64,000 bases of DNA from Candidatus Omnitrophota bacterium (GTDB lineage: Bacteria > Omnitrophota > Gorgyraeia > Zapsychrales > JANLHA01): positions 2,843,339 to 2,907,338 of the forward strand of contig OY759724.1 in the NCBI GenBank assembly GCA_963662715.1. The letters run 5' to 3'. A model generated the notes under the pieces. The model did no database searches and had not been told where the DNA came from. It saw nothing but the letters and a program-made list of their open reading frames with translations. Position 1 is the first letter of the stretch. Each line of letters begins with the position of its first letter. This document shows positions 10,639-55,009 of the stretch, in pieces. A program made the translations under genes and the position numbers.

Positions 10639-11028
10639 GTGATGGGTAAGAAAACTGGTTTTACGCTAGTTGAGGTGATGATTGTTGTCGCTATCATCGC
10701 CCTTTTAGCCGTTATTGCAATTCCTAACCTTTACCGGGCAAGAGTGCAGGCCAATCAGTCAACAGCTCAGGCCCACTTGAAATCTATCGCGAATTCCCTG
10801 GAAAACTACGCAGCGATTCATAGTATTTATCCTTCGGATACAACACAACTTTTAGGCGCCAGCCCCCCGTACCTCAGCATTGACTTTTTTTCCGGATTTC
10901 ACGCCGGATACAGTTTTACCAGTCAGCTGGGAGATTATTATTATACAATTACGGCCACCCCTGCGACTTCAGGCGCTGGAACGAGCACGTATACCTTAAC
11001 GACAGGTGGCGTTATTTCTGCCATCTAA
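10639..11028 (+). CDS. Prepilin-type (type IV pilin / T2SS pseudopilin) protein
   Basis: 129 aa. N-terminus GFTLVEVMIVVAIIALLAVIAIPNL is the canonical prepilin peptidase cleavage/methylation motif plus a hydrophobic helix. Confidence 0.75.
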   Translation: MMGKKTGFTLVEVMIVVAIIALLAVIAIPNLYRARVQANQSTAQAHLKSIANSLENYAAIHSIYPSDTTQLLGASPPYLSIDFFSGFHAGYSFTSQLGDYYYTITATPATSGAGTSTYTLTTGGVISAI

Positions 11029-14842: not shown

Positions 14843-16108
14843 ATGCTCAAGGCCTACCCCCGACATTCCGTGGATATTACAAAGCATGATTATAAACGGA
14901 TGCTTGCTTTTTTGTTCGCCCCCCGGTCCGTCAAAGCCGGATATCTGAAGCGGTTCGAGCAATCATTCGCCGGATATATCGGGACGCGGTTCGCTTTGTC
15001 CATGCCTTCCGCCAGGCTCGGTCTTTATGTCGTGTTGAAATATTTTAATTTCCCCGAGGGGACGGAAGTTATTATCACGCCTTTCACCCATCAGAGTATC
15101 TTCACGGTTCTCAAAACATTCCGGCTGAAGCCTGTTTTTGTTGACATAGACCCCAAGACCCATAACACCAATCCTTCTTTGGTCAAACAGTGTATCTCAG
15201 AAAAAACGCGCCTTATGGTTTTGACCCACATGTGGGGGCAGGCCTGTGATATGGACGCTTTTATGACGCTGAAAGAGGAATACGGCCTGAAAATCATTGA
15301 AGACTGCGCCATGGCGGCCGGGGCCGTTTATAAAGGCAAAAAAGTAGGCAGTTACGGAGATGCCAGCATATTTAGTTTCGGGAAGGCGAAAGCCATTTGT
15401 GCTTTCGGAGGAGGAATGTTGTGCCTGAATGACGAGAAGATGCATGAGTTTGTCGCTTCGGTCATTAAGGATTTTCAGCCGCCCCGGCCGTTTTCTCTGG
15501 TCTTTTCCGTGATCAATTCCGTGGTCGCCAATGTCCTCACCCGTCCGCGATGTTTTTTCCTGTCGCTTTATCCGGTTATGCGGCTTTTTAATCTCAGAGA
15601 CCCCTACAATCCGGTTGAGCATAAAAAGGATTCCGAAGTCATTCTGGAGCAGATGCCGGAAGAATGGAAAGTCCGGTTATCGTCTTTTCAGGCGGCCATA
15701 GGCCTTGAACAGCTTAAGACTTTGGAAGAACGCAATGACCGCAGAACCCAAAATGCCCGGATTTTGAACTATGCCTTGAAGGACGTCCCGGATATTGGTC
15801 TGCCGGAGACGTCAGAACGCGGGCAGCATATTTATCTCTACTATGCGGTTCACATAAAGAAGAAAACCGATCTGGACAATCTCCGGAAGAAACTGTTGGC
15901 GCGGGCCGTGGATACCCAGCTGAATGAATTGACGAATCCCGAGCAGTTAAGCATTTTTGGCGCGGACAGCGGGTCTTTTCCGGTCTTTGACAAGATCTCT
16001 CCCAACATTCTTGTTATTCCCAACGGAATAATGCTGAATGAGCAGGATATCCATGCGGTGGCACAGGCGGTCAGGGAATGCCTTGGGCCCGGCGGGGGTG
16101 AGATGTAA
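14843..16108 (+). CDS. DegT/DnrJ/EryC1 (ArnB-like) PLP-dependent aminotransferase
   Basis: 421 aa. DegT family pattern with the putative PLP-lysine in FSFGKAKAICAFGGGML. Confidence 0.8.
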   Translation: MLKAYPRHSVDITKHDYKRMLAFLFAPRSVKAGYLKRFEQSFAGYIGTRFALSMPSARLGLYVVLKYFNFPEGTEVIITPFTHQSIFTVLKTFRLKPVFVDIDPKTHNTNPSLVKQCISEKTRLMVLTHMWGQACDMDAFMTLKEEYGLKIIEDCAMAAGAVYKGKKVGSYGDASIFSFGKAKAICAFGGGMLCLNDEKMHEFVASVIKDFQPPRPFSLVFSVINSVVANVLTRPRCFFLSLYPVMRLFNLRDPYNPVEHKKDSEVILEQMPEEWKVRLSSFQAAIGLEQLKTLEERNDRRTQNARILNYALKDVPDIGLPETSERGQHIYLYYAVHIKKKTDLDNLRKKLLARAVDTQLNELTNPEQLSIFGADSGSFPVFDKISPNILVIPNGIMLNEQDIHAVAQAVRECLGPGGGEM

Positions 16109-27798: not shown

Positions 27799-29409
27799 AT
27801 GCGAAAATTCAATTTGTTAGCCGTTTTCTTGAAATACCGCATCCTGTTGCTCGTATTGCTGTTGATTGATATTCTACGAAATCCTTTTTATCTTAATTTT
27901 GTTGAGTCCTCGGACCGCCTGCGGGAATTCTCCAAATACATTTTCTTGAGATCAGCCGTTTTAAATCAAATTATTGACAACGGGGTAACGGTTTTAAATA
28001 AGCAATTTCATTTGTTGCAGGGTGCGTTCACCAATATTTTGCTTTATTTCGGCGGCTATGTTTTGCTGTGTGTCATCTCTGCGGTTTCCCGGAAGAATGC
28101 GGACCGCCGCGCCCATCCGTCCCTTGTCCCGGGAATACTGATTATCCTGTGGTCTTTTATTTACGTTTTTTGTCTGAAGGATTTTCCTCCCGGCATAAGT
28201 TTCTGCCTTATGGCCTGTATGGTCGGGGTTGCGGGCATGGATTTCATCCTTTTTTTCAGGGAAGGTTTTTTCGATAATAAATCTAATAAAAACATTTTTG
28301 CCGGTTTTTTTACGTCCGTTATTTTTCTGAGTGAATTGTTCTGCGCCCCGCTCTATTGGCAATTTTTATGTGTGTTGCAGGGGAAGAAATTCCCGAAAAA
28401 GATTTCCGTTGTTATTCAGCACGGGCATTTTATGCTCTTTATGGCTGTGGCGCTGATTTTCCTGTCTCCCCTTGAGAGCCCGTCCATTATTGAGATGCGA
28501 CAGATCAAAAAAGGCCAGTACTATGGTCTGCAGTATTATAAGGATAATATCCTGGTGGCGCTTAATGATTTCGAAGGACAGGTGGAACGTATCCACGTGG
28601 GTCATGATGTGTCTACAAAGGTCATTTACCGTTCGACGTTTCCCCGGGGCACGGAGGAGGCCATGGGGGAGAGGCTGGCTTTGAGCCCTGAGAGAGAAGA
28701 GGTGTATTTTACGGACAGGAAACAAAGCCAGCTGATCGTTGCGGATGACCGCAGTCAGAAAATAAAAGCAATGATTTCTTCCGATGTCTTCGATATGGGG
28801 GATAATGCTCTTGCTTACATGAACGGTCACGTTTATGGACTTACGGAAGAAAAACTGTGCGTTTATAAAATTGATATGTCGAGCGCCGCTCCCCAACATG
28901 TCCCGCGTTATTGCATCAATGAAGGAGAGGGAGGGATCATCCTGCCTAACGGGCCGCGTAATGTTTTATATGCCGCGAACTGGAATGATCCGGAAAACCG
29001 ATTTTTTATTTATGAGATTGACGGCCAGACACTGGATATTCACAGACGTTTCCCGATGCCGGCTGCCGGAGTGGCTATGGCCGCCGAAAACGGCAAAAAA
29101 CTGTATTGTATCTGGCCAAGGAATCTTTATGTTTTAGATGCCGGGAATTTTCGTGTTGTTGATAAAATGAAGCTTTCTTACGGCCTGATGAACACGTTTT
29201 CCCTGGATGATACGAATCAATTGGTATTCGGGGCGAACCATTTCACCAATATCATCGAAGTCATCGATTTAAAGACCAAGAAAACAGTGCAATATTTCCG
29301 GGCGGGGATCGGCAATTCCCATATCAGCAGAATCACGGTTGATGCGGAGAATAAAAATTTTTATGCCACGGTATTCCGCGACGGCATTTATATGGGGCAT
29401 TATGAATAG
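27799..29409 (+). CDS. Hypothetical polytopic membrane protein with C-terminal predicted beta-propeller-like soluble domain
   Basis: 536 aa. About 6 hydrophobic segments in the first ~230 aa, then repeated beta-strand-rich segments (...LYAANWNDPENRFFIYEIDGQ...LYCIWPRNLYVLDAGNFRVVD...). Confidence 0.35.
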   Translation: MRKFNLLAVFLKYRILLLVLLLIDILRNPFYLNFVESSDRLREFSKYIFLRSAVLNQIIDNGVTVLNKQFHLLQGAFTNILLYFGGYVLLCVISAVSRKNADRRAHPSLVPGILIILWSFIYVFCLKDFPPGISFCLMACMVGVAGMDFILFFREGFFDNKSNKNIFAGFFTSVIFLSELFCAPLYWQFLCVLQGKKFPKKISVVIQHGHFMLFMAVALIFLSPLESPSIIEMRQIKKGQYYGLQYYKDNILVALNDFEGQVERIHVGHDVSTKVIYRSTFPRGTEEAMGERLALSPEREEVYFTDRKQSQLIVADDRSQKIKAMISSDVFDMGDNALAYMNGHVYGLTEEKLCVYKIDMSSAAPQHVPRYCINEGEGGIILPNGPRNVLYAANWNDPENRFFIYEIDGQTLDIHRRFPMPAAGVAMAAENGKKLYCIWPRNLYVLDAGNFRVVDKMKLSYGLMNTFSLDDTNQLVFGANHFTNIIEVIDLKTKKTVQYFRAGIGNSHISRITVDAENKNFYATVFRDGIYMGHYE

Positions 29410-29458: not shown

Positions 29459-30499
29459 GTGAGAGAAACGAGAACTCTTTATAAAACAATTATGATGTTT
29501 CTTGTCCCGACCTGCCTTACGGTCGTCGTCCTGTATCTGTTATTCAGAAAAGTGGATCTGCCGATGATGTGGGCTTCTATGCGGCAGATCCATCCTGTGT
29601 TTCTTTTAACAGCGTTTTCAATTTCTGTTTTCTGTAACATCGCGGTTTATGCGCTGATTCGGTGTAAGATATGGCGGATCATGGGCGTTCCGGTCTCTTA
29701 CCGGGAATCGGTTTTTATCAGGCTGGGAAGCCTGCCGTTTCAGGCGATCCCGACATTTAAAGATACCGGCTTAGCCAAGGCCATATACCTGAAAAAATTT
29801 TTTGCCATGCCGATGACGGAAGGAGTTCTATCAAATATTATTGCCAATATTTTCAGCGTGACGGCAATAATATCTTTGGCGGTCGCCGGCGCTCTGGCGA
29901 ACGGAATCAATGTGATGCATATGTCTCAGATCAACCAGCCGCTTCTGCTCAGAGTGGTCCCGGTTATCGGGGTGATCAGCTTCGTCCTTTATGCGTTTTA
30001 TTTTCATCAGCCCTTTGGGAAAAAAATGCTTTTTCATGTCTGCTTCAAAAGAAACCCGGACCTGTACCGTATTTTTGAAAAAAATATGCATCTCTGGAAA
30101 AAACTTCCCGGGGTCCGGCTCTTCAGCTTTTTTGCCCTGGCCCTTGCTTTTAAGTTAGCCGAGGTGTCTATTTTTTTTGTCTTAGCGCAGGCGTATTCTT
30201 TGAATATCCCCTTTTCGGCTATTTTACTTTTTGTCCCTTTGGCCATGATTATCAGCGAGTCGCCGGCCAATATCTCCGGACTTGGGGTCAGGGAAGGGGC
30301 CCTTGTGCTGTTTTTCTGGAATTTTGCGGCCAAGGAAACCCTTGTGGCCATGGCTGTGCTGGTTTTTGTTTTTAACCGGCTCTGTCCGTTAATACTGGGA
30401 CTTGTGTTTTGTTATCCGTTTTTTTCCAGGTTAGGGGTATCATGGAAAAGCGTCAGGGCCATGGCGGGCCGGGAAGGAATAAATTCATTTTCTACATAA
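29459..30499 (+). CDS. Flippase-like / lysylphosphatidylglycerol-synthase-TM-region family membrane protein
   Basis: 346 aa, ~8 TM segments. The pattern resembles the TIGR00374/PF03706 family that is usually paired with GT2 polyprenol-phosphate glycosyltransferases. Confidence 0.55.
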   Translation: MRETRTLYKTIMMFLVPTCLTVVVLYLLFRKVDLPMMWASMRQIHPVFLLTAFSISVFCNIAVYALIRCKIWRIMGVPVSYRESVFIRLGSLPFQAIPTFKDTGLAKAIYLKKFFAMPMTEGVLSNIIANIFSVTAIISLAVAGALANGINVMHMSQINQPLLLRVVPVIGVISFVLYAFYFHQPFGKKMLFHVCFKRNPDLYRIFEKNMHLWKKLPGVRLFSFFALALAFKLAEVSIFFVLAQAYSLNIPFSAILLFVPLAMIISESPANISGLGVREGALVLFFWNFAAKETLVAMAVLVFVFNRLCPLILGLVFCYPFFSRLGVSWKSVRAMAGREGINSFST

Positions 30500-30517
30500 A
30501 AAGGCCATTGTTGATTC

Positions 30518-31246
30518 ATGCTAAATCAAACGATTTCTCTGGTTGTTCCTGTTTATAATGAGGCGGAAATCATCGCGGAAACAGTTGCCGTTTTTGACGA
30601 CGCCTTAAGGAGCATCTGCCGGGATTACGAAATCATTATCGTGGACGACGGAAGCGTTGATGAAACCCCGGGGATTCTTCAGCGCCTCTGTTCCCAGCAC
30701 GTTCGTTTAAAGATTATGCATAATTCTGCCAATATCGGAAGCGGGGCCAGCCTTTGGCGGGGCTTTCAGCAGGCGGGCAAAGACCTTGTCGTCAGCAATT
30801 TCGCGGACAGGCCTTTTGATGTTACGGAGCTGGGAAGAATTATCCCGTCCGTTGATTTCAGCGCCACAGACTTCGTCGTGGTTGTCCGGCAGGACAGAAG
30901 CGCAAACACACCCTATCGTAAGATCACGTCTTTGACGAATTATTGGCTTATCCGATGCCTTTTCCGAATTGAGATTTCTGATTTCCAATTTGTGCAGATT
31001 TACAGGCGGGACATCCTGAAGGGCGTTCGCATTGACTCCCAGGAAACATTTGTTCCCCCCGAGCTTATGATCAGGCTGATTCAAAAGGGATATCGGTATC
31101 AGGAGGTTGTTTCTTCTTTTTATAGACGGCCCGGGGGCCAGCCCAAGTGCGGTCATCCCGGGAAAATCATGAAAAGTATATTTGATATTTTAAAATTTTG
31201 GATATCCTGGGAAATCTTGGGGAAAAAGGACGGAGGGGAGCGATGA
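30518..31246 (+). CDS. GT2 glycosyltransferase, polyprenol-phosphate sugar transferase type (ArnC/DPM1-like)
   Basis: 242 aa. N-terminus SLVVPVYNEAEIIAETVAVF...YEIIIVDDGSVDETPGIL is the GT-A DXD region of ArnC/DPM1-like enzymes. Confidence 0.8.
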   Translation: MLNQTISLVVPVYNEAEIIAETVAVFDDALRSICRDYEIIIVDDGSVDETPGILQRLCSQHVRLKIMHNSANIGSGASLWRGFQQAGKDLVVSNFADRPFDVTELGRIIPSVDFSATDFVVVVRQDRSANTPYRKITSLTNYWLIRCLFRIEISDFQFVQIYRRDILKGVRIDSQETFVPPELMIRLIQKGYRYQEVVSSFYRRPGGQPKCGHPGKIMKSIFDILKFWISWEILGKKDGGER

Positions 31247-31941
31247 GAATCAGCATTATGCAACCCGGGTATTTACCCTGGCTGGGTTTCTTTGACCTGA
31301 TGGCCCGCTGTGAACTGTTTGTGATACTCGATGACGTCCGGTTTGCCCCAAGGGACTGGCGTAGCCGTAACCGGATCCGCACCAAAGACGGATGGGTCTG
31401 GTTGACGGTCCCGGTTTTATCCAAAGGCCGGGCCGGGCAAAACATTCTAGACGCTCAAATCAATAATGATATCAACTGGCGTCATACTCATTTGAACTGT
31501 TTGAGAATTCATTATGCGAAGGCCCCGTATTTTAAGGATTACATCCGATTGTTCGAGGATGTTTACACCCGACAGTGGAACAGCCTGCTGGAGCTGGATA
31601 TGGCCCTGATTTCCTCCCTGTCCCGGCAAATGAAGATTGAGACCCCTGTCATGCACTCGTCATCTTTATCTCTTACGGATGTCTCCGGCAATGAACGTAT
31701 CATTAAAATCTGTCAAGAACTGGACGCCCAAGAGCTTTACGACAGTCAGGGCGCTAAGCCGTTTATCCAAATGCCTCTATTTGAGGAAGCGAATATCCGG
31801 GTGGTTTTTCAGGATTACCGGCATCCGGAATATCAACAAGTTTATGAACCGTTTTTACCGTATATGTCTGTCGTTGATTTATTGTTTAACGAAGGGCCGC
31901 GGAGCAAGGATGTTCTGCTGCGTGATGGCCCTTCCGGTTAA
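31243..31941 (+). CDS. WbqC-family protein (polysaccharide-cluster associated)
   Basis: MRISIMQPGYLPWLGFFDLMARCELFVILDDV matches the WbqC family N-terminus. Start set at the ATG that overlaps the upstream stop (ATGA), not the track's upstream ATG at 31198. Confidence 0.6.
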   Translation: MRISIMQPGYLPWLGFFDLMARCELFVILDDVRFAPRDWRSRNRIRTKDGWVWLTVPVLSKGRAGQNILDAQINNDINWRHTHLNCLRIHYAKAPYFKDYIRLFEDVYTRQWNSLLELDMALISSLSRQMKIETPVMHSSSLSLTDVSGNERIIKICQELDAQELYDSQGAKPFIQMPLFEEANIRVVFQDYRHPEYQQVYEPFLPYMSVVDLLFNEGPRSKDVLLRDGPSG

Positions 31942-31971: not shown

Positions 31972-33807
31972 ATGAAGAAATATCCCTGGATGCCGTTTTT
32001 CATATTATTGGCTGTTGCGTTGGGCTTTGCGGCCCCTGTCTTGAAAAACATCCATTACTGGGGCCATATGGACTGGGACCAGTTTACATTCTGGCATGCC
32101 GTCCCGCGGGAAACAATTTTAAAATACCGTCAGTTCCCGCTTTGGAATCCTTATGTCAACGGCGGAAATGTCCTGCTGGCCCATCCTCATTCGGCTTTTT
32201 TATCCCCTTTTTTTATTTGTGTTCTGATCTGGGGGCCGGTTATCGGCCTTAAGCTGGAGATAGTGCTCCATCTGTTTGCCGGGCTGACGGGGATGTACAC
32301 GCTGTCGAGATATATGAAGATGAACGAACGGGCCGCTTATCTCTCTTCTTTTGTCTATATGTTAAGTTCGATTTTCCCGTTGCACTTGGGGGAAGGACAA
32401 GCCGAGTGGCTTTCCCTGGCTTTTGTCCCCTGGTTTTTTTTGTTTTTTTTGAAAACAATAGATGCGGACATGGCCCGTCGGACGGTTACGGCTGAATCAT
32501 CCGGAAGGACAGACCTTGCTTCCGGACCGGTGAGGCATGGGAATCCTTTGGCGGGAATAAAGAATTTTACGGCTGCCGTATTTTTTTTGGGCATGATTTT
32601 GGTGAGCGGGGTATATGTCTTTAACATCCTCTTCGTATTTTTGTGCTTGTATTCTCTCCTGAAATCGGTCCGAGAGAAGAGCCCGGCGCCCCTTAAAATT
32701 TTCAGCGTCATTCTCCTGGGGGCATGTTTGTTGTGCGCTGTTAAACTGCTGCCCATGCTGGAATTTTTAAACCAGTATCCCCGGCTGATCGACCAAAAGA
32801 GCGGGCTGGGCTGGGACACATTAGGAACCATGCTTTTCAGCCGGCAACAGGCCCTTTTGGACATGCGTCTCTGGGAAACGGTTCTTCTTGAGACAGGGGA
32901 ATATCAGTACGGCTGGCATGAATACGGAGCCTATGTCGGATTTCTGCCTTTCTTTTTGTTCCTTTACGGGGTTTTCAAAAGATATAAGAAGAACTGGCCT
33001 TTAATCCTCACCGCCGTTATCTGCCTACTGATTGTTTTGGGGGCGCGCGCTCCCGTCAATATCTGGGGCTTCCTTCGTCATTTCCCGGTCTATAAATCCC
33101 TTACGGTACCCTCGAGATTTATTTTTTGTTTCATTTTTCCGTTTGCCTTGTTGGCGGGCTGGGGGCTGTTTTGTTTGGAATCGTATTTGCCGCAGAGGGC
33201 TAAATCATTATCCGTCATGATTGTTCTGCTGGTCCTCACGGATTTATGGCAGGTCAATGCTCCGATCTTTAAAAATGTTTTCAGAATACCTCCGGTTAAG
33301 GTGTCCAGCGCCGGAGAGTTCCGGCAGCGGTACGACAAGATTAATTTTTATGAGGATAAAGATATCAACCGCAGTTCTCAATACCCGGTTTTCCTGAGTC
33401 ATAGCGGGATTCTGGATGCTTACGAATGCGTGCAGGTCAAACGGGGCGATGTCCGTGCGCTGACCGATCCCGGATACCGGGGGGAGATTTATTTTAAAGA
33501 CAATAAGGGGGACATTTTAAGCCAACAGTTTTCTCCCAATAAAATTACCGTTGATATTGAAACAGAAGAGCAGGATGTCCTGGTCATCAACCAGAATTAT
33601 TATCGGGGATGGCGTCTCCGCTATAACGGACGTAAACAGCAGCCTGTCAGTTACAACGGGTTGATCGCGGCTTCTGTCCCGCCGGGCCGTCACCGCATAA
33701 TTTTTTATTATTTGCCTTGGAGTTTCATCCTGGGGCTGGGGGTGAGTTTGGCTTTTATCGGCGGAATCCTTTTTTGTTTTATCAAAAATTCCCAATATCG
33801 GGGATAG
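31972..33807 (+). CDS. Large polytopic membrane protein, possibly a GT-C-fold / YfhO-like glycosyltransferase
   Basis: 611 aa. More than 10 hydrophobic segments plus a C-terminal periplasmic-like domain and a final TM segment. No confident family assignment. Confidence 0.4.
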   Translation: MKKYPWMPFFILLAVALGFAAPVLKNIHYWGHMDWDQFTFWHAVPRETILKYRQFPLWNPYVNGGNVLLAHPHSAFLSPFFICVLIWGPVIGLKLEIVLHLFAGLTGMYTLSRYMKMNERAAYLSSFVYMLSSIFPLHLGEGQAEWLSLAFVPWFFLFFLKTIDADMARRTVTAESSGRTDLASGPVRHGNPLAGIKNFTAAVFFLGMILVSGVYVFNILFVFLCLYSLLKSVREKSPAPLKIFSVILLGACLLCAVKLLPMLEFLNQYPRLIDQKSGLGWDTLGTMLFSRQQALLDMRLWETVLLETGEYQYGWHEYGAYVGFLPFFLFLYGVFKRYKKNWPLILTAVICLLIVLGARAPVNIWGFLRHFPVYKSLTVPSRFIFCFIFPFALLAGWGLFCLESYLPQRAKSLSVMIVLLVLTDLWQVNAPIFKNVFRIPPVKVSSAGEFRQRYDKINFYEDKDINRSSQYPVFLSHSGILDAYECVQVKRGDVRALTDPGYRGEIYFKDNKGDILSQQFSPNKITVDIETEEQDVLVINQNYYRGWRLRYNGRKQQPVSYNGLIAASVPPGRHRIIFYYLPWSFILGLGVSLAFIGGILFCFIKNSQYRG

Positions 33808-33818
33808 GAGGGGGGAAG

Positions 33819-35312
33819 TTACCAGTAGTTGCCCAAAGGCCGCTTTTGCTCTTCGACGCATCGGAAAGGTTCGTATGTCGCTGATCTGACGAGACGGTAT
33901 TTCCCGGAAGAGGCCGATCTGATATAATCCACTTCTTGAACATCGATGTCGATACGGTCCCCCAGCAGGGATTTTATGCCTTTTTTTATCTGTTCGATGT
34001 CCAGCCGGACTGAGGGATCGTCCTTGACAACTTTAAAGTCTATGGTCTCAGCGTTGCGTTGAATGCACTGAAAAAGCTTAACGCCGGGGTAATCAAGAAA
34101 AGCACCGATCACTTCCTTTGAAGGAATCGGGGCCCCTTCCCGGCTGATGATCAAGTCCTGCAGCCGGCCTGCCACGTCCATAAGTTGACTTGTCCTTCGG
34201 CAGGCACAGGACTGGTTGTGAAATTTTCCGACGTCGCCGTGTTCGTAGCGGATAAACGGCATGCCGTAGGAATTTAATGCTGTCACGATAATATTCGCCA
34301 GTTCTCCTTCCTGCGCTTTTTCCCCGGAATTCTTTATGAACTCGATATAACATTGCTCTTCCAGGATGTGCATCAACCCGTCGCTGTGCGGACAGGAACT
34401 GGCAATCCGACCCAGTTCGCATCCTCCGTAACTTTGAAACACAGGAGCATGAAATTGTTCGCCGATAAATTGTCTCATGGCGCGGGTGGATACCCCGGCC
34501 GTCAGGTCTATGCCTTTGCAGGCAGGGAGCCGGCAGGGATGCTTCTGCAGGTATCGGGCACACAAATAGAGATAAACAGGGTAGCCGGTGATGATTTGAG
34601 GCCGGAATCGCTGGATCTCTTTAATATAGGCTAATATGTCATTATCTGTAAAATCCGCTTCTAATGGAGGAGGAAAACGCCGGTTGTTGATAAGACTGTT
34701 GGCGATATGCCTTTCGACAAAGATATAATACGCTTGCCTTCTGTATTTATGGCGGCTTAGCGCCATTTGCAGATATTGACGCAGCCCCACTTCAGGGCTT
34801 TGTCCGTCGGGCAGGCAGGGTTGACATTCATTGGGGGCTAACCGCAGGATAGAGTCATTCACATCACAGCCCATCAAATAGCGGCTTCTTAATTTTGAGG
34901 CATATTTGTAATTGATATCCTCATGATCATGCACCAGCATTAAACCGGCCCCGGTCGTCCCTGAGGTGTTTGAAAATCGCATGAATTCTTTAGGGTAATT
35001 CTGCGCGATGACATTTTTAGGGAAAAATTCCCGCAGCTCCTTTTTTGTGATAACAGGCAGTCTCCTGAAATCCTCTTCGCATCGGATGTCTGCGGGGGTG
35101 ATCCCCGCCTCATCGTATTTTTTGCGGTAAAAGGGGACATTTTGGTATGCGTGGTCAACCACCCGCATGAGTTTTGCCCAGCGTCTTTTTCTCCTGATCT
35201 CCGCCGGATCAAAATCAGCCTGGATATATTGGCCGTAATAATCCCAGCCTTTGTTGGAACTGCATTTTGCCGCAAGAGGCAGCATAATATTTTTTAAGAT
35301 ATATTTGCGCAT
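33819..35312 (-). CDS. Adenylate-forming enzyme of the phenylacetate-CoA ligase / coenzyme F390 synthetase / CapK family
   Basis: 497 aa. ...FYRKKYDEAGITPADIRCEEDFRRLPVITKKELREFFPKN... with ANL-superfamily architecture typical of CapK/PaaK-like proteins. Confidence 0.7.
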   Translation of the reverse strand: MRKYILKNIMLPLAAKCSSNKGWDYYGQYIQADFDPAEIRRKRRWAKLMRVVDHAYQNVPFYRKKYDEAGITPADIRCEEDFRRLPVITKKELREFFPKNVIAQNYPKEFMRFSNTSGTTGAGLMLVHDHEDINYKYASKLRSRYLMGCDVNDSILRLAPNECQPCLPDGQSPEVGLRQYLQMALSRHKYRRQAYYIFVERHIANSLINNRRFPPPLEADFTDNDILAYIKEIQRFRPQIITGYPVYLYLCARYLQKHPCRLPACKGIDLTAGVSTRAMRQFIGEQFHAPVFQSYGGCELGRIASSCPHSDGLMHILEEQCYIEFIKNSGEKAQEGELANIIVTALNSYGMPFIRYEHGDVGKFHNQSCACRRTSQLMDVAGRLQDLIISREGAPIPSKEVIGAFLDYPGVKLFQCIQRNAETIDFKVVKDDPSVRLDIEQIKKGIKSLLGDRIDIDVQEVDYIRSASSGKYRLVRSATYEPFRCVEEQKRPLGNYW

Positions 35313-36793
35313 GATTTATTCCCGACAGCCCTGAGGATTTTCCGGGGATAATGTTGTATATATATGATAAAACGTCTGTCTTTGTTTTTAAGAGCCAGAA
35401 GGGTCATGAGTATTATAATGAAAAAGTTGGGGATATAGCGGAATTTTTTCCAATGATTTTTTCTCTGCAAAAAAATCCTGAAATTTCGCGGCAGAAGGGG
35501 AAGGACTTTGAAATATTTTTGGAAACACGCGTTGATCTCCCTCAGTTCTCTCGCCCCGGCAACTTCGGAGAAGAAATCTTCATGATAATCGGCATTGTCC
35601 TTGATGCCCTCCGGAGAATAATCATAGATATCCGCATGGCGGTAAAAAACCAGATTATGGCATTTGATCCTGTTGAGATACTTCTGCCGTCCGTAAATTT
35701 CAGCCGCTTTTTTGTGATCGCCCTGCGTTTCCCCGGGTATCCCGAAAAGATGGTCCGCATCATACATGAGCCGGTGCCGTTCACACATGGCAAAAGCCTT
35801 TAAAATATTTTCTGTCTTTTCCTCCCGCGAAAGGACTCTTTCTTTCAGCGATTCATTGAATGTCTGCACCCCGAATTCGACACAGTAGCAGCGGCTTTGT
35901 TTAAGCATCCCGGCTGTTTCGTCGTCGAAACTTTCGGCTTTGCCGAAACATTTAAAAGGCAGACGGATATCTTCCCGGTATCGCGGCAGGTATTCTCTGA
36001 GCCAGCTTTTATTTAAGGCAAAAATAGAATCTTTATAGATGACTTCCTGAATGTCGTATTTCACGCGGGCTGCTTTGAGTTCGGCGATGACATGAGCCGG
36101 GTCCCGTCTGCGGAAAAACTGCGGCCCGAAATTGTTCTTCAGTACGGTTTCCAGACAGTAAGAACAGCTGCACGGACAGCCTTTGCTCGTGTAAATGAGA
36201 TAGCTGCTTTTAAAAGAAATGTGCCCGGAAAAAAGATCCTTGTCCGGAGGAGGCAATTCATTGAGGTCTGCCATGGCCGTAGACCGGAAGACTTTGCAGT
36301 TTTTCCCGATGTGATCGTCCCTCAGGAAAATATTAAAGGTATATTCCGGTTCTCCGATCAGGGTGAAGTCAAAATGAGGGCGTGACGGATTTTCAATATA
36401 AGACAAATAAACAGTTCTGACATCGGGGCGTTTGCGTTTTACGGTTTTCAATACATCGTTGACCCATGCTTCATTTTGATGGATAGCGTCATAAAAGACA
36501 ATCAAATCCGGGGAGGTGATGAGGAAGTTGTCCGTGAACCGCTCCATATTACGAATAAAGCTGTGAAGCCGGCGTGAAGAGATGACGTTGTCCGAAACCC
36601 CGAAAATGTCCTGGTCGTAGGCCAGAGAAGTTTTATGCCCAAACTGCTTGGCGATGGCCGAGAGGGTTTCGGTGACCACCGCATCCTGCAAAAAATACCG
36701 GCCTTTGTACAAAAATAAAATATTCATAACTGGTAGCTGTTGCCCCCCCTGTGCGGCTTTCTGGAAATTTAAAGGCTCCGTTAACGTTAACAA
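35294..36793 (-). CDS. Cobalamin-binding-domain radical SAM enzyme (class B-like)
   Basis: 499 aa. N-terminal B12-binding domain (MNILFLYKGRYF...), then radical SAM CPCSCSYC. Overlaps the downstream CapK-like gene by 19 nt on the minus strand. Confidence 0.8.
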   Translation of the reverse strand: MLTLTEPLNFQKAAQGGQQLPVMNILFLYKGRYFLQDAVVTETLSAIAKQFGHKTSLAYDQDIFGVSDNVISSRRLHSFIRNMERFTDNFLITSPDLIVFYDAIHQNEAWVNDVLKTVKRKRPDVRTVYLSYIENPSRPHFDFTLIGEPEYTFNIFLRDDHIGKNCKVFRSTAMADLNELPPPDKDLFSGHISFKSSYLIYTSKGCPCSCSYCLETVLKNNFGPQFFRRRDPAHVIAELKAARVKYDIQEVIYKDSIFALNKSWLREYLPRYREDIRLPFKCFGKAESFDDETAGMLKQSRCYCVEFGVQTFNESLKERVLSREEKTENILKAFAMCERHRLMYDADHLFGIPGETQGDHKKAAEIYGRQKYLNRIKCHNLVFYRHADIYDYSPEGIKDNADYHEDFFSEVAGARELREINACFQKYFKVLPLLPRNFRIFLQRKNHWKKFRYIPNFFIIILMTLLALKNKDRRFIIYIQHYPRKILRAVGNKSCANIS

Positions 36794-37149: not shown

Positions 37150-38322
37150 ATGAAAATCACGGGGCTAACTGTTTTAAAGCTGTTGTTATGGCTGTTTGTG
37201 TGTGTTTTGATTATATCTGCCAACGAATTCCTGACCCTGAATGATACAGACGAAGTCACTCCGCAGGACCAGGCTGTTTTTAAATACCGCGAGGATTTTA
37301 AACAAAAGAAAATCCATGACCCGAAGAAGCTCCGGGAAATCCTGTACCAGCAGCTCAACCATAAAAATATTCGGGTGAGAATGAATGCTGCTGAAGTTCT
37401 GGGTGAACTCGGGGGGGCGGGTATCCTTGAGGACCTCTGGAACATCTATCTCAGTGACGGCGGGCCTTCGATTAGAATCTCCGCTATTGCGGGTATTCTT
37501 AATCATGATACTCCGGACGGCTTGCCGTATTTGCTGCAATCTTTGTCCGATGAACACAAAGATGCCAGGAGGAAATCCTTGTACGGGGTCTCTATCTGGG
37601 GGGATGCTTCTCACCTGGACATCCTTGAAAAAATGTTCAACGAAGAGTCTGAGTATTTGAACCGGATCGCCGTGGCTGCGGTCATGTACAACTTCGGGGA
37701 CACGGAGAAAGCGGAATATATTAAAAATGTGCTGCTCAATGAACCCGGCATCGATGTGCGCAGATATACAGCCCATCTTCTGCAGGATTACCATATCGAG
37801 ATAGACAGTCAGATCGTTGTAGAAGCCCTGCAAACGGAACAGGACCCTTATGTCAGAATATGGTTGTCGGCTCTCTTGGTCGAGCGGGGTGATCAAAACG
37901 CGCTGTCCTATATAAAGAATGTTTTATCCAGCAGTGATGTCCCGGCTTTAAAATCCTGCGCGGCCCAGGCCCTGAACGCTTTATGTGAGAGAGAGTTCGC
38001 CTATCCCTACTTGCTCGATCTTCTAAAAGCGGAAGATGCCGATGTCCGGGAAAGAGCGGTTGAAGACCTGGTGGATTTCATGGAATTTCCTCTGCTCCCG
38101 GTGCTGGGCCGGGTGCTGAAGGAAGATTCGAGTATTATTGTCCGAGAGGTCGCGGCCTGGGCCATGGGGGAAAGAAAAGAGGCCGCTGCTTTGCCGTACC
38201 TGGAACCGGGACTTTATGATGAAAGCGCTTTTGTCCGGACCGGTGTTGTTGCCGCCATTTATAAAATTCTTACCAGCGAAGGCAAGAAGCCCCGTAACGA
38301 CAGGATGTGCCATTCAAAATAA
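37150..38322 (+). CDS. HEAT/PBS-lyase-type repeat protein with N-terminal signal/anchor
   Basis: 390 aa. Repeated ...RVRxxAAxxLGEL... HEAT-like units (NIRVRMNAAEVLGELGG, DVRRYTAHLL, VREVAAWAMGE). Hydrophobic N-terminus. Confidence 0.6.
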   Translation: MKITGLTVLKLLLWLFVCVLIISANEFLTLNDTDEVTPQDQAVFKYREDFKQKKIHDPKKLREILYQQLNHKNIRVRMNAAEVLGELGGAGILEDLWNIYLSDGGPSIRISAIAGILNHDTPDGLPYLLQSLSDEHKDARRKSLYGVSIWGDASHLDILEKMFNEESEYLNRIAVAAVMYNFGDTEKAEYIKNVLLNEPGIDVRRYTAHLLQDYHIEIDSQIVVEALQTEQDPYVRIWLSALLVERGDQNALSYIKNVLSSSDVPALKSCAAQALNALCEREFAYPYLLDLLKAEDADVRERAVEDLVDFMEFPLLPVLGRVLKEDSSIIVREVAAWAMGERKEAAALPYLEPGLYDESAFVRTGVVAAIYKILTSEGKKPRNDRMCHSK

Positions 38323-38385: not shown

Positions 38386-39894
38386 ATGAAACTCTCCTTA
38401 ATTTTTAATCCGTTTTCCTATAAGGTTCATGAGGAAAATATAAGAGTCGTCCAGAAATATTTCGGACTGTTCCCGCCTTTGAGCCTCGCTTGGGTTGCTT
38501 CCATTGCCGAACAGGCGGGACACCAGGTTCAATTGGTTGATGCCCGCACTTTGAGACTTTCCATGGAAGCCACGCTCGAAAAAGTCCGGGATTTTCAGCC
38601 GGACATCATGGGATTCATGATGACGACATATATGTTCCAGGACACGTTGCTTTGGATCAAGTTCCTTAAACAGCATCTAAATATCCCGGTTCTTATCGGC
38701 GGATACAATCTGAGAGTTTATCCCCGGGAGTCTCTTTCTCATCCGGAAATCGATTTTGGTGTTGTTGAACATGCGTATTACACCGTTCCCCGGCTTTTGG
38801 AAGAGCTTGAAAGCGGCCGGCGTGATTTCGATAAAGTGCCCGGCCTGGTTTATAAACGCAACGGCCAGATCGTGGTCACGCCGCATCCGCAAAAAATAGA
38901 ATTTGATAAGTTCCCCAACCCGGCCCGGCATCTTTTACCCAATGAGCTTTATGCGGAATTCCCTACGGAGCGGAGGAACTTTACCGTCATGGTGACATCT
39001 CTCGGCTGTCCGTATGGTTGTACATTTTGTGAGGCAGGCCAGACGCCGTACAATCCCCGTTCTCCGGAGACAGTGGTCGCTGAGATGGAAGAATGCTACC
39101 GGAACTACGGGATAAGGGAAATTGATATCTTTGATTATGAGTTTACGGGTATCCGCAACCGTGTCATGCGGATTTGTCAATTGATAAAAAAGAAAGAGCT
39201 GGATATTATCTGGGCCTGCCGTTCCCGGATTGATACCGTTGACCGGGAGCTTCTGAAAGAAATGAAAGAAGCGGGATGCCGGCGAATATATTTTGGGGTG
39301 GAATCAGGCCGGCAGGAGCTCCTGGATAGAGTTCATAAAGGATATTCCATTGCCCAGATCAGGGACATTATCGCGGTGTGCTCTGATTTGGGTATCCGCA
39401 CTCTGGGCTTCTTTCTTATAGGAGCTCCGGGGGATACCCGGGAAACCGTGAAGGACACGGTGGCCTTTGCAAAAACACTTGATTTGGACTATGTCCAGTT
39501 TTCCAAATGTCTGGCCAAACCGTTAACGCCTTTGTGGAAGGAGATGGTCGCCCAGGAAAAGAAGGATTATTGGCGGGACTGGATTCTGGGCCGGGAGGTG
39601 GATCGGGAGTTGCCCCGTCCGTGGACAGAATTAACAAATCAGGAAATAGACCGGTTGGCCCGCTGGGCGTACGTTTCATACTATGCCAGACCCTTTTTCC
39701 TCTGGAAGCATTTATGCAAAATAGCTTCGTTTTCTGAATTGAAAAGAAAAGTTTTTGCCTTGTTCGATATGGTTTTTAAACAGGAATCCTATTCTCGTCC
39801 GGATGCCCATTTCGTGGCTTTTAACGAGAATCCCGGAATGAAACTGACGAAATATCAGACGTCAAAGGGCTGCCCTGACGACGGGGGCTTATGA
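38386..39894 (+). CDS. Cobalamin-binding-domain radical SAM enzyme (class B-like)
   Basis: 502 aa. B12-binding N-domain, then radical SAM CPYGCTFC. Confidence 0.8.
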   Translation: MKLSLIFNPFSYKVHEENIRVVQKYFGLFPPLSLAWVASIAEQAGHQVQLVDARTLRLSMEATLEKVRDFQPDIMGFMMTTYMFQDTLLWIKFLKQHLNIPVLIGGYNLRVYPRESLSHPEIDFGVVEHAYYTVPRLLEELESGRRDFDKVPGLVYKRNGQIVVTPHPQKIEFDKFPNPARHLLPNELYAEFPTERRNFTVMVTSLGCPYGCTFCEAGQTPYNPRSPETVVAEMEECYRNYGIREIDIFDYEFTGIRNRVMRICQLIKKKELDIIWACRSRIDTVDRELLKEMKEAGCRRIYFGVESGRQELLDRVHKGYSIAQIRDIIAVCSDLGIRTLGFFLIGAPGDTRETVKDTVAFAKTLDLDYVQFSKCLAKPLTPLWKEMVAQEKKDYWRDWILGREVDRELPRPWTELTNQEIDRLARWAYVSYYARPFFLWKHLCKIASFSELKRKVFALFDMVFKQESYSRPDAHFVAFNENPGMKLTKYQTSKGCPDDGGL

Positions 39895-41168
39895 TTTTTA
39901 GACCGATTCCAAGACAGAAATCTTCTAATTCCCTGAGCGACTTATGCCGTGTTTTTGAATTGATGCGGGAGAAAGGTTTTTTTCAGGGCGAAGGCATCAG
40001 GGCGTTTGAAACAGAGTTCGCGCAGGCTTACGGCGTCAGACATGCCTTGGCGACGGGATCCTGCCGTTCGGCCTTCTCGCTGGCGCTTGATGCTTTAGGG
40101 ATTCAAAGCGGGGACGAGGTGATACTGCCGGCCTTTAATATGCCGGCATTTCCAAAAATATTAAGATACAAGGGGATTAAACCGGTCTTTGTCGATATTC
40201 ATGAAAGGACGCTTAATATTGACGAGACATTGATAGAGGAAAAGATTACCGCCCGGACCAGGGCCATTGTTGCGGTGCATTTGTTCGGCAACACGTGTCC
40301 CATGGACCGGATCATGACTTTGGCCCGAAAGCACCGGCTGGTTGTTATTGAGGACTGTGCCAATGCTTTTAACACGCCGTATCAAGAACGTTTGGCCGGG
40401 ACTTACGGTGACGTGGCGTGTTTTAGCCTGGGTTCGACAAAAGATATCCCCACATGGGGTGGCGGGGTCATTATTACGAATGATTCCGCCCTTTTCAGCA
40501 AATGCGTCGATCTGTATGAACGAAATTTTGTGTTCCCTTCTTGGACCGAAGTGACAAAAAATCTTATTAAAGGAGCTTTGATGCAGTTGTTGTCATTGAA
40601 ATTTTCTTATCTTCTGTTAATTTTTCCCATGAACCTTTTCTGTTCACTCGTTCATTTTGACCCTTTGGACTATGTGATTGAAGAGAAGGACCGGGAGATG
40701 AGTTGTCTTCCGCAAAAGAAATACACCAACTTTCAAGCGCTTATTGGAATAAACAAATTCCAAAAGAGCCGGTTTTTTCAGGAAAAGCGCGGCGCTAACG
40801 CCCGGATTTTAAACGACCGTTTGTCTGAATGCCCGGCCATTGTCACACCCGGGGTTCTTGAAGGCGGTAGCCACGCCTACTGGAATTATCCTCTGCTGGT
40901 CCCTTGCCGGAGGCCGTTTGTCCGGGCATTGTTACGGCACGGCATCGGGACAAAGACGATTGACACTTATGACTGTAATGGATTGGATATCTTCCGGGAA
41001 TACCGGCAGATGTGCCCCAAAACAGAAGAGGTGGCCCAAAAGATTTTGGTTCTTCCTGTTTATCATCACTTGAATAAAAATGATGTGGAATTTATGGCCG
41101 CAATTCTTAAGAAGACATATTCTAAGCTGGCGCTCCAGGACCGGGGGGAGGGCTGCTCGGGGACATGA
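39891..41168 (+). CDS. DegT/DnrJ/EryC1 (ArnB-like) PLP-dependent aminotransferase
   Basis: 425 aa. Putative PLP-lysine in FSLGSTKDIPTWGGGVI. ATGA overlap with the upstream gene. Confidence 0.8.
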   Translation: MIFRPIPRQKSSNSLSDLCRVFELMREKGFFQGEGIRAFETEFAQAYGVRHALATGSCRSAFSLALDALGIQSGDEVILPAFNMPAFPKILRYKGIKPVFVDIHERTLNIDETLIEEKITARTRAIVAVHLFGNTCPMDRIMTLARKHRLVVIEDCANAFNTPYQERLAGTYGDVACFSLGSTKDIPTWGGGVIITNDSALFSKCVDLYERNFVFPSWTEVTKNLIKGALMQLLSLKFSYLLLIFPMNLFCSLVHFDPLDYVIEEKDREMSCLPQKKYTNFQALIGINKFQKSRFFQEKRGANARILNDRLSECPAIVTPGVLEGGSHAYWNYPLLVPCRRPFVRALLRHGIGTKTIDTYDCNGLDIFREYRQMCPKTEEVAQKILVLPVYHHLNKNDVEFMAAILKKTYSKLALQDRGEGCSGT

Positions 41169-44156: not shown

Positions 44157-45077
44157 ATGAACATCGCTTTTATGAAAAAAACACAAATCCTCCTGGCCCC
44201 GGCTCTGACCGCGGTTATTTTCGTGATCCTGTTCCGCTATATTTCTCTGACGGAGGTCGTCCGGATAACGAAAAATTGCCATATCAATATCCTTTTGTGG
44301 ACTTTAGTGGTCTCGGCAGGGTCAAATATTTATATCAATGCCTTAAGATTTCAGAATATTTTAAGGCAGCTGGGAATCCCTCTTTCGCTTTTCGAAACAA
44401 TACTGATCAAAGGGGGCGGTTCGCTGTTTAAAGTTTTTATGCCGGCCCGCAGCGGTGAATTCGTCATGATGGCTTACCTGAAACGGGTGAAAGACCTGTC
44501 TTATATCCAGTCCTTTTTTCTGATCATATCCGAATACATTCTCAACCTTTCGGCGCTGATCCTTTTTTTTCTTACAGGCTTCTTGTGGTCAATCAACCAG
44601 CCTGCTGTGAACCGGCATACCCTGGCCATGATTATTATGTTCCCCACGGAAGAAAATCCTTCTTCCCGGGGATTCCGGGCCGTTTTTCATAAATGGCTTC
44701 CGGATATTAAAGACAACGTCAGCCTTTTCCGCCGATTATGTTTCCGGAAAACCATTATTTTTTATACGCTGCTGTATATGGGAGCTGAAGTGCTGACATT
44801 TTATCTGTTGGCACACGCCCTGAACATTTTTATTCCTTTCGGTATTGTTCTCATGCTGATTCCGGCAGCCTTTTTGCTGAGCAGCCTTCCGCTCACTTTG
44901 GGAGGGCTGGGCCTGAGAGAGTGCGCCGTATTGTTTTTATTTTCATCCTATGCCCCGGCAGAAGAGCTGTTGTCTTTGGGCGTTCTTTATTCTTTTGTTG
45001 AAAACCTTTTCCCTTTGCTGATTAACGGATCTCTGTCCGGTCTTTTTCTTTCCAGGTTATTGAAAGGGGAGCAATGA
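44157..45077 (+). CDS. Flippase-like / LPG-synthase-TM-region family membrane protein
   Basis: 306 aa, multiple TM segments. Same family pattern as 29459..30499. Confidence 0.5.
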   Translation: MNIAFMKKTQILLAPALTAVIFVILFRYISLTEVVRITKNCHINILLWTLVVSAGSNIYINALRFQNILRQLGIPLSLFETILIKGGGSLFKVFMPARSGEFVMMAYLKRVKDLSYIQSFFLIISEYILNLSALILFFLTGFLWSINQPAVNRHTLAMIIMFPTEENPSSRGFRAVFHKWLPDIKDNVSLFRRLCFRKTIIFYTLLYMGAEVLTFYLLAHALNIFIPFGIVLMLIPAAFLLSSLPLTLGGLGLRECAVLFLFSSYAPAEELLSLGVLYSFVENLFPLLINGSLSGLFLSRLLKGEQ

Positions 45078-46066: not shown

Positions 46067-46107
46067 TCCGGATTTTTATCCATTAGCGGTCTATAGCCGA
46101 TATTCTT

Positions 46108-47322: not shown

Positions 47323-47443
47323 AACGGTATAAATTTTTCAGCCTTAAAAAGTTTTATCTGAAAAATGCAAAAGCTGTTTGTCCGGGGGGCTTCCTTTCTC
47401 CGGGATATCCCATATGGATACAAAAGGCGGGTAACGGGAATTT

Positions 47444-54979: not shown

Positions 54980-55009
54980 CCTCTTTTAAAATACGGAATC
55001 AAGACAATA

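Follow-up and report, generated by a model that had tools for sequence, protein, structure and literature searches.

Candidate transmembrane glycosylation modules amid radical-SAM genes in an Omnitrophota genome

CsbB, GtcA and YfhO, known from Bacillus and Listeria, form an experimentally supported three-component system (PMC5836110, PMC7389260, PMC8035078), in which, as in PgfS/PgfM1/PgfM2 of Streptococcus mutans, an ArnC/DPM1-like family 2 glycosyltransferase (GT2) is found beside a YfhO-type glycosyltransferase of the GT-C fold, and a single sugar is transferred outside the membrane. Archaea possess a conserved neighbourhood of a UPF0104 protein, a PMT/STT3-like protein and an AglD-like GT2, along with AglD fusions of GT2 to UPF0104, and an archaeal UPF0104 member is predicted to flip a lipid-linked sugar (MJ_1079/MJ_1080 neighbourhood, PMC5898192). 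Here we describe a 64,000-nucleotide stretch of a Candidatus Omnitrophota genome (contig OY759724.1, hereafter the window), in which genes for a GT2 (GT2a), a membrane protein of the LPG_synthase_TM family (PplT, resembling the flippase of MprF) and a YfhO-like GT-C lie side by side within an island of ~50 kb (11425-61420, nearly all on the plus strand). An original prediction, made from the sequence alone, had described this island as repeated lipid-carrier glycosylation modules of the ArnB/ArnC/ArnT/ArnEF aminoarabinose type.

We think it probable, though well short of certain, that the island codes for transmembrane glycosylation systems with several components, akin to ArnC/ArnT, GtrB/GtrC and CsbB/GtcA/YfhO. 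Like CsbB/GtcA/YfhO and PgfS/PgfM1/PgfM2, it pairs an ArnC/DPM1-like GT2 with a YfhO-type GT-C. Unlike these systems, it offers as flippase candidate an MprF-type PplT protein and not a small GtrA/GtcA protein (domain scans found no match to GtrA, PF04138, in the window, and the PplT-type protein stands in its place), its GT2s are devoid of transmembrane (TM) helices, and its modules lie amid radical S-adenosylmethionine (radical-SAM) enzymes. Because the host is a PVC-group diderm, lipoteichoic acid is, unlike for CsbB/GtcA/YfhO, an unlikely acceptor. The short TM-less GT2s (~230-240 amino acids, aa) recall PpgS of the mycobacterial PpgS/Rv3632/Rv3779 system, in which the GT2 makes polyprenyl-phosphate-N-acetylgalactosamine and a GT-C uses this amino sugar to place galactosamine on arabinogalactan; the partner membrane protein of our locus is, however, of another type. 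The AglD-type archaeal neighbourhood brings together the same three protein families, yet the present case is bacterial and consists of three separate genes, and the archaeal case, itself a prediction, was described without a radical-SAM context. Within known transmembrane glycosylation systems, the joining of a PplT-type flippase candidate, a TM-less GT2 and radical-SAM coupling is a new combination, and our literature search turned up no account of such a cluster from Omnitrophota.

In the scheme that we infer, GT2a and the second GT2 of the island (GT2b), as soluble or peripheral enzymes, would work at the cytoplasmic face and load polyprenol phosphate with one sugar, drawn from a nucleotide sugar. 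The PplT protein would move the lipid-linked sugar to the outer leaflet, and may also serve as a membrane anchor for the TM-less GT2. The GT-Cs that start at 31972, 47444, 55010 and 59720 (GT-Cs are named below by their start positions; Table 1) would use the lipid-linked sugar as donor on an envelope acceptor outside the cytoplasm, possibly lipopolysaccharide (LPS)/lipid A-core or a surface protein. The radical-SAM, DegT and AsnB proteins encoded nearby may tailor the sugar, possibly while it is lipid-linked, by oxidation and transamination, C-methylation or ring chemistry. The logic of loading, flipping and periplasmic transfer had been put forward in the original prediction, and is well supported by the presence of all three families, namely lipid-phosphate GT2, flippase-like protein and GT-C.

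These parts are identified by family or fold, packed in operon-like fashion and conserved in arrangement. Module A, whose first gene is 27799-29409, holds the only contiguous flippase-like/GT2/GT-C trio of the island. There, 18 nucleotides (nt) separate the LPG_synthase_TM gene from GT2a, the start of the gene for a WbqC-like protein overlaps the GT2a stop codon (ATGA), and 30 nt separate the WbqC-like gene from the YfhO-like GT-C. The full order, i.e., a membrane-protein gene homologous to 27799-29409, LPG_synthase_TM, GT2, WbqC, YfhO-like GT-C, a PaaK-like gene and a radical-SAM gene on the opposite strand, and a HEAT-repeat gene, was kept in four related loci (L001, L010, L011 and L012; loci are designated by L-numbers), with 61-66% identity for GT2a in L001/L010 and 57-58% for the YfhO-like match in L011/L012. 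A scan of genome contigs with a single LPG_synthase_TM sequence found no relatives, and exact look-ups of GT2a and of protein P0001 returned no recorded entry.

To place module A in a wider frame, we examined 80 loci that hold a YfhO-like homologue, taken from a collection with one genome per species. A GT2 lay within 10 kb in 37 of them; a full-length ArnC-like GT2 was found within 10 kb in 27 loci, which span many phyla, and within 1.5 kb in 16 (raw counts). With a few GT2s of this sort in each genome, chance would be expected to yield only a few percent. DegT aminotransferases and radical-SAM genes were each present in 24/80 loci. The LPG_synthase_TM/GT2/YfhO-like trio recurred, differently ordered, in L019 and in L032, a locus of Chloroflexota, and loci of Zixibacteria and Ignavibacteriales repeatedly combined a YfhO-like gene, a GT2 and two DegT genes. 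Given the order kept in L001, L010, L011 and L012 and the 27 loci with an ArnC-like GT2, the gene arrangement is not a matter of chance. As a separate observation, in six loci of Zixibacteria and Ignavibacteriales (L065, L068, L070, L071, L074 and L078) the YfhO-like GT-C stands 16-83 nt from a divergently oriented ArnC-like GT2, in compact sets with one to three DegT genes and no radical-SAM genes.

The two GT2s appear to be of the lipid-carrier type, as had been predicted. In a ranking of solved structures, GT2a (242 aa) and GT2b (234 aa), each as a single sequence, matched ArnC first, followed by DPMS and GtrB. A GT2 family profile, which is a mix of subfamilies, matched ArnC (E 1e-41), DPMS (1e-31) and GtrB (7.5e-31) over the full catalytic domain (profile positions 4-229), whereas chondroitin and heparosan synthases and other GT2s aligned to its N-terminal nucleotide-binding half only. 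The top NCBIfam matches (for GT2b, the best four) included ArnC, PgfS and PpgS, which are all sugar transferases acting on lipid phosphate, with every score far below cut-off: PgfS ranked best or third-best, and GT2b matched PpgS with 64 bits over positions 3-195 of 226 (cut-off 370). The processive synthase PgaC ranked second for both proteins, over its N-terminal part only, and no clustering with processive synthases was seen. D44, D48, D97, R204 and G207 are invariant in the GT2a clade, the last two within a C-terminal RxxGxxK motif. The metal-binding DXD motif reads DAD in GT2b and FAD in the GT2a clade, where only the second Asp (D97) is invariant. The alignment to ArnC stops at residue 226 of 322, where the ArnC membrane helices would begin, and a hydrophobic-moment scan singled out no C-terminal amphipathic helix. 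By these comparisons GT2a and GT2b group with the ArnC/DPMS/GtrB polyprenol-phosphate transferases and not with processive synthases, which suggests that they transfer a sugar to polyprenol phosphate.

All four GT-C candidates, including 31972, which the original prediction had listed as a possible one, are GT-C enzymes by family or fold and not unrelated transporters. Sequence comparison by hhalign and BLAST among the candidates was insignificant, and we therefore relied on fold searches and on Pfam scans carried over from homologues; single-sequence and profile searches against the PDB gave no match. One candidate was assigned through Pfam (47444; PMT_2, PF13231, 99.1 bits against a cut-off of 26.1) and one through homologues (59720, which itself scores 25.2 bits, just under this cut-off, while 38 of 40 diverse homologues from an exhaustive search match PMT_2). 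The other two were assigned through structure models. The AlphaFold model of 31972 (predicted local distance difference test, pLDDT, 91.3) retrieved AglB, PglB, STT3, AftA and ArnT (E 3e-5 to 8e-4), as well as ALG12 and AftD, in Foldseek, and its first 16 matches were all GT-C enzymes; its sequence matches were confined to C-terminal YfhO and, in NCBIfam, PgfM1/M2. Its likeness to YfhO lies mostly at the level of the fold. For 55010, which has no family match, the model built from an alignment (pLDDT 90.9) retrieved ArnT at the top (5ezm and 5f15, E 6.4e-7, TM-score 0.56-0.59), then ALG9, ALG12, STT3 and DPY19, the first 33 matches all being GT-C enzymes.

Each of the four GT-Cs has conserved acidic residues 9-13 positions past the first TM helix (TM1), behind a positively charged N-terminus: D34 (near-invariant) and D36 (invariant) in 31972, D33-E34 in 47444, D35 and E36 (invariant, as is W33) in 55010, and D/E50 and E51 in 59720, where E51 and E154 are invariant. 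With the topology set by the positive-inside rule only, these residues would fall in the first extracytoplasmic loop, which is the arrangement expected of a GT-C catalytic loop. GT-C genes also form arrays in other Omnitrophota: L008 (5045-21085), L014 and L017 carry four to six consecutive GT-C genes (PMT_2, YfhO-like, 55010-type and PMT with TPR), accompanied in L008 by a DegT, an SDR and a SPASM radical-SAM gene.

The aminoarabinose framing of the original prediction did not hold. Like the ArnB/C/D/EF/T system, the island unites DegT proteins, an ArnC-like GT2 and an ArnT-like GT-C in one locus, and every gene that had been named lies where it was predicted and belongs to the predicted superfamily (open reading frame (ORF) list and domain scans). 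This includes the four DegT aminotransferases (PF01041, 201-279 bits, pyridoxal-phosphate (PLP) lysine kept) and the two flippase-like proteins, which score well above the family cut-off. However, the Arn equivalog cut-offs were all missed. The DegTs scored 116-192.5 bits against 631 for ArnB (~3- to 5-fold short), with higher scores for the PseC and LegC models; the GT2s scored 67 and 62.5 bits against 529 for ArnC (~8-fold short); and the best ArnT score was 27.4 bits against 567 (~20-fold short). The domains of ArnA (dehydrogenase/decarboxylase/formyltransferase), of the ArnD deformylase and of ArnE/F were absent from all main ORFs of the window, the GT2s lack the ArnC helices, and the flippase candidate belongs to another family. 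Pfam and NCBIfam scans of the main ORFs further found no nucleotide-sugar dehydratase, epimerase or nucleotidyltransferase in the island, so its DegTs cannot act, as ArnB does, on a keto-sugar nucleotide made by island genes. As judged from these scores and absences, the modules are not members of the Arn pathway.

Several observations weigh against transmembrane glycosylation as the role of the island, or at least against parts of our scheme. The 27/80 figure for ArnC-like GT2s is a raw count. LPG_synthase_TM adjoins the YfhO-like gene in only 4/80 loci. Distant GT2a homologues (L002-L004) lie amid radical-SAM genes with no LPG_synthase_TM or GT-C gene nearby. In the GT2a clade FAD replaces DAD and the D..GF motif is missing, and neither GT2 has TM helices, unlike ArnC and GtrB; human DPM1 and PpgS likewise have none. 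All proteins missed the curated equivalog cut-offs widely, and the lipid acceptor of a GT2 is not readable from its sequence. There is a single contiguous trio, and two GT2s and two flippase-like proteins face at least four GT-Cs. Finally, the flippase activity of stand-alone LPG_synthase_TM members is unproven, even for GpgF, and proteins of this family also serve the synthesis of end-product glycolipids such as that of GpgSDF (PMC12713373).

This last point leads to a different account, in which the pathway would be one of glycolipid head groups (GpgSDF, HexSDF or HpnI/J/K/L type): the GT2 would glycosylate a membrane lipid, e.g., a phospholipid or a hopanoid-like polyol, whose head group radical-SAM and DegT enzymes would remodel, and the LPG_synthase_TM protein would flip the finished lipid, and not a donor, as end product. 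Indeed, a UPF0104 flippase-like protein is coupled with a glycosyltransferase and a deacetylase in the synthesis of glucosaminyl-phosphatidylglycerol (GlcN-PG; PMC12713373), and HpnL belongs to the same InterPro family as LPG_synthase_TM (10.1101/2025.07.29.667474). The Hpn system shares with our locus, besides a glycosyltransferase and an LPG_synthase_TM-family protein (as in GpgSDF), a B12 radical-SAM enzyme, which in the Hpn case acts on an amino sugar linked to lipid. The Hpn enzyme, HpnJ, is thought to remodel lipid-linked glucosamine and is the best NCBIfam match of the two B12 radical-SAM enzymes B12_6 (174 bits) and B12_10 (136 bits). Three further radical-SAMs bear the MJ0619/Tes zinc ribbon of a lipid-modifying enzyme (PMC9433317), and the distant GT2a homologues without a neighbouring GT-C would fit as well. 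However, the HpnJ and Tes scores are far under cut-off, the GT2s resemble ArnC/DPMS and not the GT4 enzyme GpgS, and domain scans found no deacetylase in the island, whereas Hpn and GpgSDF include one. Moreover, a pathway that makes an end-product lipid needs no GT-C, yet a GT-C stands beside GT2, WbqC and LPG_synthase_TM in four genomes, and the island has four. We consider this account unlikely.

We hold a conventional O-antigen or exopolysaccharide locus, in which the GT2s would build a chain on an undecaprenyl-diphosphate-linked oligosaccharide and the polytopic proteins would be polymerases or ligases, to be less likely still, indeed quite improbable. O-antigen clusters typically include WbqC and DegT (PMC5532660), a GT9 is present, Wzy_C proteins occur beside GT2 genes in L002-L004, and the polytopic protein 48720-50273 has no family match. 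Yet domain scans of the main ORFs found in the window no Wzx, Wzy/Wzy_C, Wzz, initiating phosphoglycosyltransferase or ABC exporter, the GT2s match ArnC/DPMS/GtrB at full length, including the C-terminal lipid-phosphate-type motif, and the polytopic proteins that could be assigned are GT-Cs by fold or family.

Returning to transmembrane glycosylation, the genes around the trio of module A add context to it. The first, 27799-29409, has a homologue directly 5' of LPG_synthase_TM in L010, L011 and L012; it yielded weak matches to DUF6923 and YNCE only, no family assignment even at E 10, and insignificant hhalign scores. The flippase candidate 29459-30499 has ~7 TM helices and a weak match to the TIGR00374 flippase-like domain. 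The search for relatives of the WbqC-like protein found none with a solved structure and no known function. The PaaK-like protein has a CapK_C homologue in L001 and L010, and the divergent radical-SAM enzyme 35294-36793 shares 25-27% identity with the B12 paralogues of the island. These two are the sole minus-strand genes of the island (33819-36793), a PaaK/DVU_1553-like and radical-SAM pair that is kept in L001, L010, L011, L012 and L016; the best match of the latter enzyme is a 'lipid biosynthesis B12-binding/radical SAM' (ladderane-type) model (57 bits). A homologue of GT-C 31972 (P0175, 984 aa) is a YfhO-like GT-C fused to HEAT repeats, which suggests a functional link between the separate HEAT-repeat protein (37150-38322) and the GT-C.

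Modules B (44157-50273) and C (53681-61420) are less complete. Module B comprises a flippase-like protein, a radical-SAM enzyme, a DegT, a GT-C and a further membrane protein, without a GT2. The original prediction had each GT2 next to a flippase-like or GT-C gene; this was borne out for LPG_synthase_TM 29459, which adjoins GT2a, but not for the second copy, 44157 (27% identity to the first), which is followed by the radical-SAM gene, whose start its stop codon overlaps (ATGA), and then by the DegT and GT-C genes. The membrane protein 48720-50273 gave no Pfam match even at E 10 and insignificant hhalign scores; in L019, L049 and L061 its homologues are accompanied by GT-C and radical-SAM genes. 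Module C consists of a B12 radical-SAM enzyme (B12_10), an ArnT-like GT-C, GT2b, a GT9 (77.5 bits to the heptosyltransferase II model, cut-off 134.6) and a PMT_2 GT-C, and has no flippase-like gene. B12_10 lies directly 5' of the ArnT-like GT-C, an adjacency kept in L005 and L009, whereas in L006 a set of radical-SAM, AsnB and B12 radical-SAM genes lies downstream of the GT-C instead. A 90-aa ORF (59245-59517), signal-anchored and rich in Cys towards its C-terminus, is found between the GT9 and the last GT-C gene; it has no family match, and at its place L005 and L009 have ORFs of 88-90 aa.

The enzymes that might tailor the sugars are unusually many. Besides the four DegTs, all with the PLP lysine motif and each adjoining a radical-SAM gene, the island encodes 17 radical-SAM enzymes (12476-54979), all with an intact CxxxCxxC motif: ten with a B12-binding domain, one divergent B12-type, three with the MJ0619/Tes zinc ribbon, one SPASM, one MiaB-like and one plain. 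Five tandem B12-binding paralogues (17422-18999, 20336-21844, 21841-23337, 23353-24882 and 26240-27760) share 41-49% identity, and none reaches a curated family cut-off. The three proteins with an N-terminal MJ0619-type zinc ribbon (MJ0619 being GDGT-MAS/Tes, the tetraether lipid synthase of archaea; 13453-14841, 16112-17425 and 24866-26206) score 124-161 bits to Tes (cut-off 450) and 170-180 bits to TrsS (cut-off 490), and their homologues recur in related clusters. The DegT and SPASM radical-SAM pair (11425-13450) is conserved in the distant relatives L002 (5025-7033), L003 (3605-5634) and L004. The MiaB-like member (18975-20333), a MiaB/RimO-family methylthiotransferase-like protein (224 bits against a subfamily cut-off of 251), is distinct from the MiaB-like housekeeping gene at 7212-8513.

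As no nucleotide-sugar dehydratase is present, amino groups could plausibly arise, in the manner of BtrN/BtrS, by radical-SAM oxidation of an alcohol followed by transamination, a logic that the overlapping DegT and SPASM pair resembles. Taken together with this, further observations suggest a coupling of radical-SAM tailoring to the stage at which the sugar is lipid-linked: the HpnJ matches; a 753-aa fusion in L002 (16096-18357), which joins a B12_6 orthologue (44% identity, N-terminal part) to a DPM1-like GT2 bearing the canonical motif MDADxSH; and the association of the 55010-type GT-C with B12 radical-SAM genes and, in the window and in L006/L007, with AsnB. More speculatively, and rather against the odds in our estimate, sugars may acquire their diversity while on the carrier lipid, instead of as nucleotide sugars, with loading by a GT2, remodelling by radical-SAM, DegT and AsnB proteins, export by PplT and transfer by several GT-Cs. 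Candidate remodellers would be the B12-dependent HpnJ/AprD4-like, the MJ0619/Tes-like and the SPASM dehydrogenase-like enzymes, together with DegT and AsnB, and the chemistry would be anaerobic oxidation and amination, C-methylation and possibly ring contraction.

As to the acceptor, the GT9 gene and the ArnT-like fold make LPS/lipid A-core a candidate, and the PMT family and an upstream pilin with a Ser/Thr-rich tail do so for a surface protein. This type IV pilin (10639-11028, Ser/Thr-rich C-terminus) lies immediately upstream of the island, and in L005 and L009 immediately upstream of a block of radical-SAM, GT-C, GT2, GT9 and GT-C genes. We also weighed whether the island might be a maturation cluster for a protein or for a ribosomally synthesised and post-translationally modified peptide (RiPP), in which the radical-SAMs would modify a ribosomal product, e.g., the pilin or the small Cys-rich ORF, and GT2 and GT-C would only glycosylate it. 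The B12 radical-SAMs do weakly match ApyD and RiPP C-methyltransferase models, the small exported ORF keeps its position in L005 and L009, the Ser/Thr-rich pilin is directly upstream, and PMT-family enzymes O-glycosylate proteins. Nevertheless, we found no precursor-like peptide by the radical-SAM block and no protease or exporter, and four sugar-type DegTs are interleaved with the radical-SAM genes, leaving such a cluster very improbable. Adjacency of the pilin to these genes is limited to close relatives with full synteny, being absent from L006 and L008, and the pilin was not adopted as the glycosylation acceptor.

The layout of the window, like the domain absences, is based on an ORF listing and Pfam/NCBIfam scans of all main ORFs. 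Housekeeping genes occupy 1-11 kb (ilvBN, gshAB, dus and the MiaB-like gene), together with a TIR-domain gene and the pilin gene. The island then carries two LPG_synthase_TM genes, two short GT2s, a GT9, six large polytopic membrane proteins, the four DegT and 17 radical-SAM genes, and WbqC-like, PaaK-like, HEAT-repeat and AsnB-like amidotransferase genes. Homologues of the window proteins are labelled Candidatus Omnitrophota or PVC group. By BLASTN, the window aligns collinearly with L005 and L009 as far as 11021 (the pilin gene end), and these loci resume at 53693, so that there the pilin gene runs straight into a B12 radical-SAM gene and the ArnT-like GT-C. The intervening ~42.7 kb (11022-53692), with modules A and B and most radical-SAM genes, is missing from that site in L005/L009, and its counterpart sits elsewhere: L011 is on L009's contig, ~25 kb off, and L001 is on another contig of L005's sample. 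The collinearity break and the displaced counterpart imply that the island of the window is two blocks joined by rearrangement. The two junctions of the block share no 10-mers and show no repeats, and the GC content of the island is the same as that of its flanks. An Rfam scan of the window gave no match, cobalamin riboswitch included, and promoter and terminator counts were about those of shuffled sequence. Two neighbouring genes, both kept in L005 and L009, encode a CAP12/Pycsar-effector-type TIR-domain protein (8538-9419, between the MiaB-like and pilin genes) and an AAA_15/AAA_21 (AbiEii-like) ATPase (61610-63589, directly 3' of the last GT-C gene).

Table 1. Features of the island discussed in the text, with coordinates in the window.
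Feature	Coordinates	Strand	Basis or remark
DegT aminotransferase	11425..12492	+	PF01041 279 bits; overlaps SPASM radical-SAM gene 12476-13450
DegT aminotransferase	14843..16108	+	PF01041 237 bits; between two MJ0619/Tes-like radical-SAM genes
Membrane protein, ~6 N-terminal TM helices and C-terminal beta-propeller-like domain	27799..29409	+	first gene of module A
LPG_synthase_TM / PplT (MprF-flippase-like), candidate flippase	29459..30499	+	PF03706 75 bits, cut-off 33.4
GT2a, ArnC/DPM1-like, candidate polyprenol-phosphate sugar transferase, 242 aa	30518..31246	+	PF00535 70.2 bits
WbqC-like protein	31243..31941	+	PF08889 249 bits
YfhO-like GT-C glycosyltransferase	31972..33807	+	C-terminal YfhO match, structure model
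PaaK/CapK/F390-synthetase-like adenylating enzyme	33819..35312	-	NCBIfam PaaK 137 bits, below cut-off
Divergent B12-type radical-SAM enzyme	35294..36793	-	Radical_SAM 29.4 bits, CxxxCxxC intact
Signal-anchored HEAT-repeat protein	37150..38322	+	HEAT_2 118 bits; conserved in L001, L010
B12 radical-SAM enzyme B12_6	38386..39894	+	best NCBIfam match HpnJ 174 bits, cut-off 577.6
DegT aminotransferase	39891..41168	+	PF01041 251 bits; flanked by B12 radical-SAM genes
Second LPG_synthase_TM / PplT flippase-like protein, module B	44157..45077	+	PF03706 111.7 bits, cut-off 33.4
Radical-SAM enzyme, module B	45074..46066	+	PF04055 95.7 bits, CxxxCxxC intact
DegT aminotransferase, module B	46108..47322	+	PF01041 201 bits, SFTGSK lysine motif
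PMT_2-type GT-C, module B	47444..48730	+	PF13231
Polytopic membrane protein, at least 10 TM helices	48720..50273	+	no family match
B12 radical-SAM enzyme (B12_10), module C	53681..54979	+	Pfam; best NCBIfam match HpnJ 136 bits, below cut-off 577.6
ArnT-like GT-C, module C	55010..56626	+	structure model, Foldseek
GT2b, ArnC/DPM1-like, DAD motif, candidate polyprenol-phosphate sugar transferase of module C	56719/56767..57471	+	PF00535 106 bits
GT9 (heptosyltransferase family)	57563..58789	+	PF01075 64.6 bits; kept in L005, L009
PMT_2-type GT-C, module C	59720..61420	+	PMT_2 via homologues

Omnitrophota are bacteria of high abundance and often very small size, most of them uncultured, and the locus, on our reading, shows that they make use of the widespread scheme of lipid-linked monosaccharide, flipping and GT-C transfer. 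It departs from the textbook cases in its MprF-type flippase candidate, a type so far only predicted, in archaea, and in the exceptional set of radical-SAM enzymes to which it is tightly linked. Should these enzymes not act on lipid-linked sugars, the modules would be ordinary envelope-decoration systems. If they do, glycan biosynthesis would gain a new site of radical chemistry, and with it a source of unfamiliar envelope sugars. Were diversification on the carrier lipid to prove true, Omnitrophota and related uncultured phyla would possess a radical route to unusual surface amino sugars that is independent of nucleotide sugars.

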